Virus record (IMG/VR): IMGVR_UViG_3300047388_000220
Coordinates: 4,975-68,974 of that record
DNA from: a virus
Reading direction: 5' to 3' (one strand)
DNA: 64,000 nt
The notes under the pieces are model-generated. The model did no database searches. It saw nothing but the letters and a program-made list of their open reading frames with translations, and was not told where the DNA came from. Position numbers and translations under genes: made by a program. The stretch's first letter is position 1. Every line of letters begins with the position of its first letter. This document shows, in pieces, positions 18,334-31,130 of the stretch.

Positions 18334-21300
18334 TCATTGAATCTTAACTCCTCCACCGGTGATTGTTACTGGCCCTGTGATGGTGACACCATCCCCAACC
18401 GGCGGCGGAGGAGTTATCGGGATAAAGGTCGCCGTCACGGTGCAGTCGTTCGCAGGCATCGTGCCGTTGTAGGTTGCGCCCACCAGCGTGCCGCCGCATC
18501 CGGTGGCGGTCGAAACGGCATACCCGATTCCAGGCGTCAACGTGCAGGCATAGGCGGTGCCACCGACGTGACTGCCGACGCACCCCGCAACGGATCCTGC
18601 TCCGGTGATGCTAGCCGAGATATTGAAACTGGGCGGCGGGGTTACTGCGAAAGTCGCTGCCACGGTGCAGTTCGAGGCCGGCATGATTCCGCTGTAGTTG
18701 CCACCTGAAAGCGCTCCACTGCAGCCCGTAACGCTTGTGGTGAAATATCCTGGGGCCGGAGTCACTGTGCAGCCATAAGCGGACCCAGAAGACAGCGTGC
18801 CTGCGCACCCGGTAACCGTTCCGCTGCCGGTAACGGAATTCGAGAGGGTAAAAGTCGCTCCCACGGACAGAAGAACAGGCTGATTCGACAGGGTAGCCGT
18901 GCCCGAGACGGTAGTAATCGTACCTGCCAGGCTCTGCTGCTGCGTGAACGTGGTCGCATACGGGGCATTGCCCAGCCAGCCGGTAAACCACGCAAGCCGC
19001 TGCGGAGATCCCGAGGCGACAAGGTCGACCGTATAGATATTTCCTCCAGTTACGGCAGTGCTTACCATGGGGCCTATAAAAGAAGCCGCGGACAGCCACG
19101 CCTTGGTTTGAATGAATGCAGCATTTACCGATGTTGGTCCGGATGGAATCGTCGAGGTTGGTGGAGTGCAGCCGCCGTTTATCCCGTCTCCAAACTGAGT
19201 CCCCCAGCACCGATCCTGCCACGAATACCAGAGCGAGTGCACCGGCTTAGAGCCACTGGCCGGTGTGGCCGCGAGAGCGATCATGTGCCGCGATGTGTAG
19301 GCTGCCCTGAGGAACTTAGTGTTGGCGGAAGTGTCAGAGACGCCGTCAGTCATCGCTGAGTTGATTCCGAACCCGCCCTCGGTCTGCCAGACGGGGAGCG
19401 CTGAAGCCCATGAAGCGATCGCGGGGTTCCCAAGAATGGCTGGCGAGTAGAGCGTTGCAACCTGGTCCTTGATGGCCGTACGGCAAGAGCTATTTGGAGC
19501 TCCGGTACATGTTCCGCTTCCGTGGGCTACGAGATCCTCGGGAAAGGGAGCGGTGGCCGGAAATGTGATGGTCGTTCTCGCGGGGTAAGCGTGCCACGAA
19601 ACCGCATCCGGCAGATGAGGCAGAGAGTAAAACACGGTCGTATCTGATTCGATGTGGGCCGTGCCGCTGGTCGGCGCTGTGGTCTCGTCAATCTGGACCT
19701 GTATGTCAGGGCCCGCAGCGTAAGTGTGGTTGTCAACAGGGATAAATCCTGCTGCTAGCCCAGTCACCGCATCCACGAGGCGATAAGTGATCGGCGTCGC
19801 CCCTGCGGTCACATCATTCAGGCTCAAAGCATCGTAAAATGCGCAGTTAGTTGGGCTGGTGAACGTGCAGCCGGGGTTGCGATGGCCATACTGCCGAATG
19901 TGGTACCAGTGCCCTGAGATTGCTGTAAAGGTGGTTAGATCGGGATGGGTGGCGGTCACGTCGATGCCGCGAAAATCCTGCCATGATAGGCAATTCTGGC
20001 CACAATACTGAAGTGTGTGCGAAGCGCCGTTGTACTGGAAACCCCAGCCCGTATAGGCGCACTCCCCAGCAGCATAAGCAGCAGCACTGCAGTTGTAGTT
20101 CACGTCCGCCTCAAGGTTGTGGATCGTGGCGACGTTGGGAATCATGAAGTAGAAGTCGCGGTAGTAGAATCTGGCGTTATCGAGGTCAGCGGAAACCGTC
20201 GGATAATCTCGTGGCCAGAGCACGTCCGCATTTGGGAACCCTGCCGCCGTCGACACGCCGAACACTGCACTACTCGAAGGTTTACATGGCGATGGCGCGA
20301 GTCCGGGCACAATGGTGGGCAGATTCCGGTTCGGGTCTCCGGTGCAGATGCCGTCATCAGCCGTGCCGCCGTAGGTATCGCTCAACGTGGCCGGTGAGTC
20401 TGTTCCCCCTGCTCCCAGCCCATTATTCACAGGCGCTATGCCGACTCCCGAGTTGGTTGCCACCACCACGCCCAGATTAGGGCCAGGGGGAGTACGGCTC
20501 ATTGCCAGCGTCTTGGCGGCGGTGGTGCAGTAAAGCTGCCCTACGGGCACCCCCGCGGGCTGGGGCACCCCTCCTGAGTAGTCAGTTATGCAGTTCGTGA
20601 GTTGCTTGCCGACCGGAGTAACAACTATGCCGGTGGAGTTGGCATTGCTCGAAAACGTGGTGCTGATAACCGGTACGATCGCGCCCCAATCAGCGAGACC
20701 GGTTTCGAGCGCCGTAATCCACGAGCCGCCCGAGCCGTCTCCGCCAGCCGAAACCGATCCTCCGATGATGGTGCAGTCTCCGCAATAGAGCCGAATGATT
20801 GCTGCCTTGTCCTCGAGCATCTTCGCCAACTGCACGTAGGTCCCGCCCCAGTAATTTCCTACATTCCATTCGTTCCAGCCCTCGAATACTTTCAGAGTAC
20901 AGGCACCTATAAGCGGACTCGATGGCGCAGCCGACACACCGCACACATGGCGCATGATAGCGGTCACGGCTTCCTTGTACTGGCAGTTGGTGGTATTCAC
21001 TCCAGAGAGAACGTTCTGGCAGTTTGCGTAGGTGTTAATATCCGTCGGCGGCGTGAATAGGTTGCCCGTTCCGTTGGCCCAGATGGGAACATAGCGATCG
21101 GTGTAGATCGGGAACGAGCCGGGGTGCGCCACGTCCGAGGCCACGAAGGCATCGATCACCGCGTAATTGAAGGTTCCGCGCACTGGCTCGATACTTCTCC
21201 AGTCTGCCGGGCAACAGATACGATCCGCAGTTGGAAAGGGATTCGTGGTTTGCGTAGACGCAGTACGAGAGATCGATTGAACAGTTTGACCCCATGCCGA

Positions 21301-28796: not shown

Positions 28797-31130
28797 TTAG
28801 TGGACCCGAATGCCCGTATCTGTGGTGGTTCCGCAGTTTGCTGCATTGACAGTCAGAGCTCCGACCGGCAGAGCGCCGGCCGTAGCGCAGCGATACATGG
28901 TTTGCCCGCCTCCGGCGACGGTCGTGTTTCCGAGGATGGTTGTGTTCCCGGTGCAGTCTACCCGCAATAAGTTCAGGCTGCCTGCGGTGTCTTGCACATC
29001 AAGCGCCGTGCTGGCCGTTGATCCGCAATGTGTTGTCAGGAACCCAGCGTCTGGAAAGCCGAGCTGGCCAGCGTCTACTCCCGCGAAGTTCCCCCCGACG
29101 CCCTGAAAAACCGTTCCAACGACGCTTGTATAGGTGTTATTGGCTGCGGTGAGGGTAGAAGCCTCGTTATAAAAGACGTGATCGCCAATGTTCGTGAAGG
29201 CTGTTCCTGTCACCGTCCAGCGACCCTGGGTAACAAGCGCCTCGTGCGCGATGTTGGTAAATACTGAATTGGTCAAGACAACATCATTGCCGCTGGCGCT
29301 CGATGCTCCGAACCCTTGGTAGTAGTTATTGCAGATCAGATTGCCGACCGTGATCCTGCTGGTTTGGTTTTGAAGGCTCATACAGGACCCTGAAGACCCA
29401 GTCGTTTTATAGTCGATAGTCCCATTGACAATGGTCACATTATTCAGGCTGGTCGACCCGCCATCGAGCAGAATTCCAAAATTCGCCATCGCACCGATGG
29501 TGAAATCAGACAAAGTGAGATACTGGTTAATCTGATCCTGCGCGGAGATGATCATTCCATTAGAATCTCCCGGTGCCGCCAGCGAATCGAGAGTGATGTG
29601 CGAGAGTATGTTTGAACTGGATGGCGCATAAGGGTCAGATTTGACAATAAACGAGTCGACCGAGTGTCCTCGCTCGTAATCTCCATCCCACACCGAGTTG
29701 GTTCCTTTGAGAATCGAGCCATGCAGGTTATAAACTCCGGACGTGTTGTGCACGTAGGCGTGATCCACATTCTCCACAAGGAACACATGATAAGGGGCAG
29801 AGAGGTTATAGCCGAGACCTACAACATTTTCAATTATCGGTGACTCAATCTGCGGAGCACCTATAACTTGACCGCTATTTGAAAGGCTCAACACATCAGC
29901 CGGCACGCCTCCGTAGGTCGCATTCACGAATGCAGGTCCAACATCGATGCCTAGATTTCGAATGGTGAGGAAATTGGCGCCCTGGATTGCCGCCACGGTG
30001 CCTTGAATGATGGTTCCGCCGACCAGCGCCGTCGGAGCGGTCGGAGAATTGAACCACGGCATGCCTGATCCCTCAATATCGACATGCGCGGTAGAGATGG
30101 CCGGATTCGATTGGTCAAGGCCGCTCCGATAGGTGCCGATTCCGAGCATCACCGTTCCGCCCCCTGTTGGCAGGAGCGCTATGCACGCAGCTACCGTGCT
30201 TATCGTCGGACAATTCACTGCCGGCGCAGCAGATCCGGTCACCGTAATGCTGCCCACTTCCAAATTCCCGGTGATGTGGCCTGACCCGGCAAACAACTCA
30301 TACGCCCCCAGGCTCAGCGGGCCCGAGATCGATTGCAGCCCATGGCTGGCAGGCTGAGCGAGAATCGGAACCGGATACGTCACCACGCCGTGGTAGTAGG
30401 GCAGGCCGTTGGCTAAATTGATCGTCGATCCCGGGCCCAGCAACTGCCACTGCATCGGGAAGCCAGGAACAGCATTGCCGCTTGAATCGGTCATCGATGC
30501 CTTGTAACCGGTCCCAGTCGGCCAGATCGCATCATTGGCCACCACCTGGCAGAGTGTCGTATTCGTCGAGGATGGCGCCGCTCCGGTTACCAGGGCCGCG
30601 GACTGGACGTAGGACGCTGATCCGCTAGTTTGGCCCTGCAGCGTTTCTCCGCCGGAGGCAGTACCGATGAAGACGTCCATGCCCACCGCATTTGTTGGCA
30701 CACCGCTTGCGGGGGGATTCACAACCAGCGCCGAGGTCGCGCTAATGCGCGTCTCCGGGCTGGCCAGCGTGACATGGCCGGCGGCGTCGTACCACTCGTA
30801 GACGGTGTAGTAGGTTCCGGCAGGCAGAGAGCCTGACCCGCCCGATGTGTCGATGGTCGCGGTCAGAGGATTCGGAATTCCCACCACAGACCCATCCGTC
30901 GAGGTCGCACACGTTACCGGCGTAGCGATATCGATCGCGCAGCCCTGGATAAAGCCGGCCTGCGATGGGGTAAGGGTCAGGATGGAGTTCGATGATGGGG
31001 TGCCGTTGGCGCCGCGGAGGCTGCCGGTCAGCGTCACCTGTGAATTGGTGAAGCAAGTCTGACCCGTGGCGATGGTGACAACGGCACACCAGAAGACTAT
31101 CAGGCCGAGCAACCGCAAGAGGCGGGTCAC
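28797..31130 (-). CDS. Signal-peptide-bearing tailspike-like beta-helix protein (777 aa)
   Basis: GTG start with GAGG RBS; MTRLLRLLGLIVFWCAVVTIATG|Q; ACIALLPTGGGTVMLGIGTY beta-helix cap; GGSGSLPAGTYY module. Confidence 0.7.
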   Translation of the reverse strand: MTRLLRLLGLIVFWCAVVTIATGQTCFTNSQVTLTGSLRGANGTPSSNSILTLTPSQAGFIQGCAIDIATPVTCATSTDGSVVGIPNPLTATIDTSGGSGSLPAGTYYTVYEWYDAAGHVTLASPETRISATSALVVNPPASGVPTNAVGMDVFIGTASGGETLQGQTSGSASYVQSAALVTGAAPSSTNTTLCQVVANDAIWPTGTGYKASMTDSSGNAVPGFPMQWQLLGPGSTINLANGLPYYHGVVTYPVPILAQPASHGLQSISGPLSLGAYELFAGSGHITGNLEVGSITVTGSAAPAVNCPTISTVAACIALLPTGGGTVMLGIGTYRSGLDQSNPAISTAHVDIEGSGMPWFNSPTAPTALVGGTIIQGTVAAIQGANFLTIRNLGIDVGPAFVNATYGGVPADVLSLSNSGQVIGAPQIESPIIENVVGLGYNLSAPYHVFLVENVDHAYVHNTSGVYNLHGSILKGTNSVWDGDYERGHSVDSFIVKSDPYAPSSSNILSHITLDSLAAPGDSNGMIISAQDQINQYLTLSDFTIGAMANFGILLDGGSTSLNNVTIVNGTIDYKTTGSSGSCMSLQNQTSRITVGNLICNNYYQGFGASSASGNDVVLTNSVFTNIAHEALVTQGRWTVTGTAFTNIGDHVFYNEASTLTAANNTYTSVVGTVFQGVGGNFAGVDAGQLGFPDAGFLTTHCGSTASTALDVQDTAGSLNLLRVDCTGNTTILGNTTVAGGGQTMYRCATAGALPVGALTVNAANCGTTTDTGIRVH

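Follow-up and report, generated by a model that had tools for sequence, protein, structure and literature searches.

To our knowledge, the textbook account holds that tailed phages are assembled wholly in the cytoplasm. The tailspikes and depolymerases of podoviruses, including those of the P22 gp9 type, TSP1 to TSP4 of CBA120 and those of Klebsiella and Acinetobacter phages, have no leader and are assembled in that compartment, and P22 tailspikes can join finished heads as the last step. Phage proteins that use the Sec pathway have been described among lysis functions, where the secreted endolysin of fOg44, signal-arrest-release (SAR) endolysins, the T4 antiholin RI and spanins wait in the envelope until lysis, according to the sections of a review drawn on here (Fernandes and Sao-Jose 2018, PMC6116005). 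A closer counterpart to the proteins considered below is found in Cellulophaga phage phi18:3 (KC821620.1). The products of its consecutive genes gp085 to gp087 are labeled 'structural protein' from tandem mass spectrometry (MS/MS) proteomics, according to a GenBank note; all three have leader-like N-termini, with Gln after a crude cut site in two of the three. Their relatives in phage phi46:3 (gp079 to gp082) are leader-like as well, whereas none of the nine other annotated structural proteins of phi46:3 is, and among the RefSeq names given to the relatives are pectate lyase, tail fiber protein and virion structural protein. Here we examine a cluster of six late genes, encoding proteins designated P0001 to P0006, in the virus record IMGVR_UViG_3300047388_000220 of IMG/VR. 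The stretch analyzed, hereafter the window, comprises 64,000 nucleotides, bases 4975 to 68974 of the 68,974-bp record, whose completeness according to CheckV is 100%. Judging from sequence features, we see an almost even chance that these six proteins, probably together with a seventh encoded nearby, are Sec-exported, disulfide-bonded appendage proteins that bind receptors and cut glycans.

Translation of the six minus-strand open reading frames (ORFs) between positions 18334 and 31130 reproduced the signal-peptide-like N-termini on which an original prediction of export had been based: in each, basic residues come first, then a hydrophobic run, and then a small-x-small site with Gln directly after it. 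Lys or Arg occurs within the first 2 to 6 residues in each protein, the uncharged runs span 10 to 18 residues, and the predicted cut sites (marked by a slash) are TIATG/QTC for P0001, MADA/QTA for P0002, AIAG/QTT for P0003, SSFA/QGG for P0004, TARA/QFT for P0005 and SAWG/QTV for P0006. The seventh ORF likewise bears a leader, MRLARVISLTLVMLAAIAASA/QTYSIQ. Gln directly follows the predicted cut in all seven proteins, and all seven N-termini fit the pattern of Sec and signal peptidase I substrates, for which a positively charged n-region, a hydrophobic h-region of about 7 to 15 residues and small residues at positions −3 and −1 are typical. Nor do the mature parts of the six contain a 19-residue window above a Kyte-Doolittle value of 1.79, and their C-termini are not hydrophobic, in keeping with the predicted lack of an obvious C-terminal membrane anchor. 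A leader score that combines charge, the presence of an uncharged run of hydrophobic residues, and a small residue at both −3 and −1 was computed for ORFs of at least 60 aa, chosen greedily across the whole record. With this home-made and crude score, whose cut sites are approximate, eight of 77 ORFs reached 5.3 or more and the next best reached 4.5. These eight are the six cluster ORFs, the seventh ORF and a doubtful plus-strand ORF (15421 to 15780) that lies antisense to a co-oriented gene. The leader pattern is real and far beyond chance.

The start codons used here also have local support. Purine runs resembling Shine-Dalgarno sequences lie upstream of the leader-bearing Met of P0001, P0002, P0003, P0005 and P0006, and no obvious run of this kind precedes the start of P0004. 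The leaders of P0002 and P0005 begin at internal Met codons (at 28753 and 22670, respectively), each with its own ribosome-binding site, which is AAGGAG located 11 nt upstream of Met32 in P0002 and GAGG upstream of Met37 in P0005; the relatives of P0002 in related loci are syntenic and also bear leaders. As called publicly, P0006 is 949 aa long and begins with a GTG at residue 52, which cuts off both the leader and a conserved Cys-Cys segment. Because relatives have a leader and conserved sequence upstream of residue 52, the 1000-aa form is the right one. Other sorting signals were considered and set aside. A lipoprotein signal was rejected, since the A-H-C/Q sequence of relatives places His at −1 relative to Cys, which misfits the lipobox. 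A sorting signal of the type IX secretion system or of the PEP-CTERM type, or an outer-membrane C-terminal anchor, was rejected as well, as no such family was matched and the C-termini are not hydrophobic.

Retention of the leaders by homologues had been named beforehand as a check, and they are indeed retained. P0001 has 292 relatives at E ≤ 0.001, and the counts given here use the 119 listed besides P0001 itself. Nearly all of these match only its N-terminal third, hereafter the N-module, and 106 of the 119 are leader-like; of the 13 that were not flagged, most appear by eye to start within or after the leader. A domain shared by P0002, P0003 and P0004 behaves in the same manner. The match between P0004 and P0003 covers residues 6 to 188 (E 4e-27), and a full HMMER search with P0003 against 1.8 billion cluster representatives returned 317 proteins at E ≤ 0.001. 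In these proteins, which range from 112 to 1768 aa, the shared N-domain is always N-terminal. Leader-like N-termini were scored in 133 of 149 cluster representatives, with Gln at the crude cut in 91 of those 133, and most of the 16 unflagged representatives again start, by eye, within or after the leader.

Gene order is conserved along with the leaders. In 19 related loci (17 viral contigs and two contigs of metagenome-assembled genomes, MAGs), a P0001 relative is followed by two to four proteins with the shared N-domain and then by variable large proteins, and leaders are present in all 19. In 17 of these loci, the point at which conservation of the mature P0001 relative begins is immediately preceded by a hydrophobic stretch and Gln, and the remaining two were flagged leader-like in a separate locus scan. 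The leaders are alike in physicochemical pattern and not in sequence, with conservation of the mature proteins beginning at the predicted cut. Close relatives of P0005 keep their leaders, and among the 12 relatives of P0006, three have a leader together with a conserved SISRTASTQT..ADR.CC segment. Relatives of P0004, 419 to 1876 aa in length, occupy the same position in related loci, and a tblastn search with P0004 against GenBank phages gave no match. These findings support the view that the leaders behave like genuine Sec and signal peptidase I signals, and it is very probable that they are real export signals. As a separate observation, one related contig (L017, 1076 to 9919, plus strand) encodes three more large leader-bearing proteins (1401, 313 and 1256 aa) upstream of its P0001 relative, and thus the exported set can be larger and differently ordered.

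The original prediction also noted many apparently paired Cys residues, and the counts bear this out. The mature forms of P0001 to P0006 and of the seventh ORF contain 12, 4, 4, 22, 10, 30 and 4 Cys residues, respectively, which are even numbers in seven of seven, vs 24 of the 49 other ORFs of the record (at least 100 aa each, with 13 doubtful ORFs set aside). Even counts recur in 120 of 133 N-domain representatives and in 78 of 106 P0001 relatives, figures that are inflated by shared ancestry; the variable C-termini differ greatly in length. Two pairs stand out in 120 aligned sequences of the P0001 family. Cys26 and Cys64 occur together in 80 and are jointly missing from 36, and one is found without the other in four, such that 116 of 120 are concordant, and Cys74 and Cys194 are both present in 118. 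That Cys26 and Cys64 are kept or lost together is what structural disulfides predict. The even counts and the covarying pair therefore support, at the level of sequence statistics, a likely folding of these proteins in an oxidizing compartment.

The bodies of the proteins were compared with known folds and families. Only P0001 and P0003 were folded with AlphaFold2 (AF2), and the model of P0001 used 50 sequences. The predicted local distance difference test (pLDDT) value of the P0001 model exceeds 90 for residues 30 to 245 and is 70 to 89 for residues 520 to 680, and the model contains a beta-helix at about residues 490 to 680. Its C-terminal beta-helix gives VIA Z scores of 16.8 with Geobacillus virus E2 ORF18, 16.7 with pectate lyase, 16.0 with the AS12 gp42 tailspike (root-mean-square deviation 4.2, 235 residues aligned), 15.8 with CBA120 TSP2, 15.7 with RbmB and 15 to 16 with the Pam1 tailspike. 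The relatives of P0001 cover 29 to 55% of its length, with the N-module kept and the C-termini swapped. Domains found at the C-termini of these relatives include Gp53-like_C (60 bits), K1-lyase_C (31 bits) and Laminin_G_3 (47 bits), and PF21882 occurs in 17 of the 119 listed rows. P0005 shares only a motif of about 60 aa with its distant relatives, which include leaderless fibers with Peptidase_S74, DUF5907 and DUF2793. The PALGTPASG motif of P0005 and the LYVC..NVW motif of P0003, both named in the original prediction, are present in the translations. Likewise, the predicted spike, fiber and pectate-lyase-type bodies are supported by the P0001 beta-helix, the fiber domains on its relatives and the occurrence of the P0005 motif in leaderless fibers. 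The similarity of these bodies to receptor-binding or depolymerase proteins is thus supported.

P0006 differs in kind. Pfam identifies Flg_new_2 in two stretches of this protein (E 1e-12), and the motifs WNEWN and QTEGG, weighed here as possible marks of a clan GH-A glycoside hydrolase, can be read from its sequence, with no match to a Pfam glycoside hydrolase family or to a sequence in the Protein Data Bank (PDB). No muralytic family (lysozyme, amidase or transglycosylase) was found by Pfam in any of the seven proteins, and no other ORF of the record resembles a receptor-binding protein in family scans. The seventh ORF matches no Pfam or PHROG family, and blastp gave no counterpart of it among ORFs from the related loci compared; a strong terminator-like hairpin (34700 to 34672) precedes it, with no gene in between. 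As for the N-terminal regions, the model of P0003 has pLDDT values above 90 over residues 41 to 170 of its N-domain. Profile searches with both conserved N-modules against PDB sequences returned no match at E ≤ 1, and an Atlas search with the P0001 N-module returned only unnamed, mostly viral clusters with a TM score of 0.5 or lower. A predicted complex between the P0001 N-module and the shared N-domain scored 0.00 in two runs, which is neither support nor contrary evidence.

We next consider whether these genes belong to the phage or to its host. Genome matches to the P0001 module were limited to MAGs titled Acidobacteria bacterium and Terracidiphilus sp., and in both MAGs the shared N-domain is confined to a phage-like contig. 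Among 201 genomes of the family of the Terracidiphilus MAG (Acidobacteriaceae), five carry the shared N-domain. One of these five is an integrated prophage, located at about 574,000 to 612,000 of a 2.47-Mb contig (G108:C7), in which the leader-bearing genes keep their order and lie ahead of counterparts to the portal-like (39%), capsid-like (35%), 1027-aa (45%) and terminase (34%) proteins. Some members of the lineage are therefore temperate, and this prophage fixes the host group. Given the restriction to phage-like contigs and the prophage, the leader-bearing proteins are a phage property. Absence from virions combined with a match to ordinary host secreted proteins had been named as grounds for abandoning the idea of export for assembly, and by this distribution the proteins are not ordinary host secreted proteins.

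From these features we infer export, leader cleavage, disulfide formation, N-terminal pyroglutamate, presence on the virion and joining at lysis, which can be arranged as follows. Late in infection, the proteins would be threaded unfolded through the SecYEG channel of the host. The leader would be cut before Gln, which may then be cyclized by a host glutaminyl cyclase. An N-terminal pyroglutamate is plausible on sequence grounds, given Gln after the cut in seven of seven proteins and a Glu_cyclase_2 match (E 1.7e-94) in G108, the host-family genome that carries the prophage; no such match was found in G001, a second host-family genome that is a MAG and possibly incomplete. The bodies would fold in the periplasm with structural disulfides, with the P0001 N-module and the shared N-domain of P0002 to P0004 as likely attachment pieces and with variable C-termini that would bind or cut host surface glycans. 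Heads and a cysteine-poor tail core would be built in the cytoplasm. If the exported proteins are virion parts, then they would meet these particles only once lysis merges the two compartments. The exported enzymes may also thin the polysaccharide coat of the infected cell before release.

The steps of this scheme differ in probability. Granted export, we lean toward the proteins being parts of the virion, because they have modular receptor-binding habits, because the record holds no other candidate and because phi18:3 offers a precedent. A virion role combined with joining at lysis is plausible, with the chances about evenly split, and for the whole chain from export to joining they may fall a shade lower. 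A mixed outcome, with P0001 to P0005 on the virion and P0006 free, is possible. In its most sweeping form, the proposal would describe two-compartment assembly in an apparently short-tailed lineage of Acidobacteriota phages, with heads and a cysteine-free tail core made in the cytoplasm. The entire receptor-binding apparatus, comprising a primary spike and two to four proteins with a common docking domain, would along with free glycanases be Sec-exported, pyroglutamate-capped and disulfide-locked in the periplasm, and it would attach to the particles at lysis. In that event, the leader-bearing virion proteins of the unrelated phi18:3 would point to a route that is widespread among phages of soil and water bacteria and has been overlooked. 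We regard this form as doubtful.

Several observations weigh against export for assembly, in addition to the crudeness of the leader score, the relatives that lack a leader flag and the shared ancestry behind the cysteine counts. None of P0001 to P0006 matches a PHROG (0 of 6), and a Pfam match above cut-off was obtained only for P0006 (Flg_new_2); the fiber or spike label therefore draws on fold, architecture and the domains of relatives. The beta-helix fold is equally common to secreted bacterial lyases, and two Beta_helix matches and one K1-lyase_C match in relatives fall under the Pfam cut-off. The model of the shared N-domain has no Foldseek match at E ≤ 0.001, and its best VIA Z score, 5.8, is to a generic small beta-barrel and is too weak to name a fold; barrels of this type also occur in the N-terminal part of K1 lyase, the phage Chi tail tip and the JBD30 baseplate. 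The fold of the P0001 N-module (residues 30 to 245) was barely probed, as the beta-helix filled the match list of the full model. Because the folds of the N-modules match nothing clearly, their docking role is conjecture. Pfam and PHROG scans identified no endolysin or holin confidently in the record, and the lysis step is therefore an assumption. VKOR was found in G001 only (E 8.9e-19) and DsbB in neither of the two host-family genomes. Lastly, the phi18:3 proteins show no significant similarity to the window proteins (best E 0.068), and MS/MS of a virion preparation, as used for phi18:3, can include co-purifying proteins.

Some of these points suit a different arrangement, which we consider rather unlikely, wherein the exported proteins are not part of the virion and act, in the periplasm or after release, as glycanases, lyases and lectin-like binders. 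They could cut or mask the exopolysaccharide or receptors of the infected cell, and thereby ease release, keep progeny from sticking to debris or exclude superinfection. The true receptor-binding protein would then be an unrecognized leaderless protein, and the exported set would be akin to tailspike-like bacterial enzymes such as WceF and RbmB. The P0001 beta-helix fits secreted bacterial lyases as well as it fits tailspikes (RbmB at Z 15.7, and WceF as a weak Foldseek match), P0006, which has InlB B-repeats, resembles an enzyme and not a fiber, none of the six is matched by a PHROG structural family, and the leader-bearing genes of Porphyromonas phages are read as host-surface modifiers in the part of the published account used here (PMC10367356). 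However, N-modules are conserved while C-termini are shuffled, two to four paralogues have one N-domain in common, and the genes keep their place within the late operon and take up 12.8 kb of coding sequence, all of which is typical of receptor-binding proteins and not of accessory morons. Tail-fiber C-terminal domains are found on relatives, the record offers no other receptor-binding candidate, and leader-bearing phi18:3 proteins at a comparable position were found by virion MS/MS, per the record note.

An improbable compromise is that each precursor has two fates, with one part staying in the cytoplasm to be built into virions, where disulfides would form after release, and with the exported fraction acting as free enzyme. 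Disulfides could in principle form after lysis, and for other phages a single depolymerase is known in both free and virion-bound forms, which counts for this option. On the other hand, folding in the cytoplasm normally prevents the export of a Sec substrate, and vice versa, and a hydrophobic leader on the end by which an assembled fiber usually docks seems costly. Moreover, the leaders are strong, with runs of 10 to 18 residues and clear small-x-small sites, and are kept in essentially all full-length relatives. These same leaders bear on the idea that the N-termini are not export signals at all and represent miscalled starts, uncleaved anchors or assembly helices, which we find very hard to credit. 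The public gene caller does start P0006 at residue 52, and AF2 does model the P0001 leader as a helix. Yet there is conserved sequence upstream of the short P0006 start, and the Met codons that begin the leaders have ribosome-binding sites upstream. In more than 230 divergent relatives, the leaders vary in sequence, hold to a constant pattern and end just before the conserved mature start. The hydrophobic runs are also shorter than typical anchors, and the even Cys counts fit export.

The features of the cluster and of its surroundings are collected in Table 1. The record has a GC content of about 58%. PHROG profiles identify its large terminase (phrog_979, E 6.5e-27), with a weak match for the small terminase, as well as DnaB, GroEL, Bet/RecT-like, RecE-like and SbcC-like proteins, a replication initiator and several homing endonucleases. 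P0001 to P0006 lie within a long minus-strand unit that runs from about 34.6 kb downward. Downstream of the cluster are genes for small proteins and for 856-aa portal-like, scaffold-like and 434-aa capsid-like proteins. The original prediction placed the six genes upstream of holin-like, portal and capsid genes. Their common orientation was confirmed, but the labels are weak. The small protein directly downstream of the cluster is a candidate lysis protein with a weak match to an Rz-like spanin, and the 856-aa and 434-aa proteins have no family match in Pfam or PHROG to back their structural labels. In an Atlas search, the 434-aa protein resembled viral clusters, with SU10_MCP on 15% of the members of one of them, which is a lead only. 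A phmmer search of PDB sequences with the portal-like, capsid-like, 970-aa and P0006 proteins gave chance-level rows only. Families of tail tube, sheath or tape-measure proteins were not detected in the record, which makes a short tail likely. Scans of the window for tRNAs and for Rfam families found neither.

Table 1. Positions of the leader-bearing genes and of neighboring features (window coordinates unless stated otherwise).
Feature	Position	Strand	Description
P0001, 777 aa, GTG start	28797-31130	-	leader residues 1-23 (31062-31130)
P0001 layout	N-module residues ~24-280; linker 250-490; right-handed beta-helix ~445-740	-	linker poorly modeled; from AF2 and VIA
P0002, 316 aa from Met32	27803-28753	-	23-residue leader, shared N-domain, Thr/Ala-rich C-terminal part
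P0003, 247 aa	27044-27787	-	19-residue leader, shared N-domain ~38-185, short C-terminal tip LYVC..NVW
P0004, 1264 aa	22681-26475	-	20-residue leader, shared N-domain, large body with 22 Cys
P0005, 441 aa from Met37	21345-22670	-	18-residue leader, fiber-type protein, PALGTPASG motif
P0006, 1000 aa	18334-21336	-	16-residue leader, glycanase-like body, two C-terminal InlB B-repeat domains, 30 Cys
Seventh leader-bearing ORF, 167 aa from Met at 34581	34078-34581	-	AASA/QTYSIQ, 4 Cys, GGGAGG 5 nt upstream
Small protein, candidate lysis protein	17942-18193	-	one N-terminal hydrophobic helix; directly downstream of cluster; phrog_739 Rz-like spanin, E 0.0055, weak
Portal-like protein, 856 aa	12857-15427	-	Cys-rich insert
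Free-standing HNH_3 homing endonuclease gene	26490-27047	+	between P0003 and P0004; C-terminal helix-turn-helix
Small nuclease-type or orphan genes of late region	8204-8566; 33506-34138; 12212-12853; 5857-6525	-	
Presumed core or internal virion proteins free of Cys	57525-63959 (-); record bases 780-2351 and 3745-4806; 8954-10663		cysteine count

The six genes had been described as consecutive. This holds for the minus strand, yet an HNH endonuclease gene on the plus strand is located between P0003 and P0004. The Pfam match of this free-standing gene to HNH_3 has an E value of 1.7e-14, the stretch that carries it is 568 nt long with 48.8% GC, and a counterpart is absent from the 17 related viral loci. 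A minus-strand ORF at 26472 to 27086, listed as P0007, was rejected as spurious, the real gene at that place being the endonuclease. Other small genes dot the late region, and they include a 120-aa fragment-like match to C5 DNA methylase (E 2.2e-6), a DUF559 endonuclease-like protein (E 5.9e-20) and GIY-YIG and HNH homing endonucleases. The portal-like protein carries a Cys-rich, zinc-ribbon-like insert at about residues 210 to 257, whose matches are weak (TFIIB Zn-ribbon, E 0.0037; a LIM-domain chain, E 0.0025). Four presumed core or internal virion proteins of 2144, 523, 353 and 569 aa contain no cysteine at all. With about 2.1% Cys in the exported set vs none in these core proteins, the late proteins seemingly fall into two classes.

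If receptor-binding proteins do mature in the periplasm, then completion of the tail would be tied to lysis. Fibers could make use of disulfides, and perhaps of host envelope modifications, for stability in soil, and active depolymerases would be present in the envelope of the infected cell before it bursts. Leaders of this kind are trimmed or ignored by gene callers and annotators, of which the public call for P0006 is an example. Fiber proteins produced as enzymes or for host-range studies would have to be expressed in the periplasm in order to fold, and the style of the leader could be used for host prediction, in that Gln after the cut mirrors the host. The lineage concerned is a large, broad and environmentally common group of uncultured phages, to which the window phage, a complete one from soil with an Acidobacteriota host, belongs. 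With Cellulophaga phage phi18:3 in culture, the question is testable now.

How, then, does this locus compare with known systems? With podovirus tailspikes and depolymerases, the window proteins have in common a beta-helix body, several paralogues per genome, a common N-terminal module and mosaic C-termini. They differ in that their N-modules match no solved anchor domain. Pantoea WceF and Vibrio RbmB, which are among the fold matches of P0001, are beta-helix enzymes that act on the exopolysaccharide of the cell itself and are exported out of the cytoplasm. However, these two are encoded by chromosomal genes of polysaccharide loci, whereas the window genes belong to a phage late operon with shuffled C-termini. 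The Sec-dependent lysis proteins are small effectors of lysis, in contrast to the large, fiber-like or spike-like window proteins, which lack a muralytic family.

The residue that follows the leader invites a second comparison. The Q-rule, in which cleavage by signal peptidase I exposes Gln, is described as specific to Bacteroidetes, in a paper that nowhere uses the word Acidobacteria (Bochtler et al. 2018, PMC5837995). The window phage also has Gln after the cut, and its host phylum is Acidobacteriota and not Bacteroidota. In the prophage-bearing host contig (G108:C7, 1,000,001 to 1,400,000), Gln is the commonest residue after the crude cut, at 10 of 42, vs 4% Gln overall, which hints at a weaker Q-rule-like habit outside Bacteroidota. 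Porphyromonas gingivalis phages carry five leader-bearing Q-rule genes of unknown function that are interpreted as altering the host surface (Matrishin et al. 2023, PMC10367356). There too, the exposed Gln mirrors the host, and tail parts go unmentioned in the passages of that study considered here. For two Bacteroides phages, one to two signal peptides were counted in the corresponding part of another report (PMC5723332).

The nearest likeness is to phi18:3 and phi46:3, in which consecutive late genes of a tailed phage also encode leaders in which basic residues give way to a hydrophobic run and a small-x-small site. The premise that structural proteins of tailed phages lack leaders holds for the normal case, but the phi18:3 record labels three leader-bearing proteins as structural. 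The host of phi18:3 (Pachyviridae) belongs to Bacteroidota, whereas that of the window phage belongs to Acidobacteriota. The phi18:3 proteins are also poor in cysteine, with 0 to 3 residues and some odd counts, compared with 4 to 30 residues and only even counts in the window proteins. Because their cysteines are so few, disulfide-dependent folding is not indicated in phi18:3. As judged from the sequences, the parallel is one of kind and not of descent. Among the titles and abstract openings searched, we found no published description of Sec leaders on the fibers or spikes of tailed phages, nor any discussion of the leaders of the phi18:3 proteins. What appears to be new here is therefore the combination of tail fibers or spikes with secretion leaders and paired cysteines, for which phi18:3 provides the nearest precedent.

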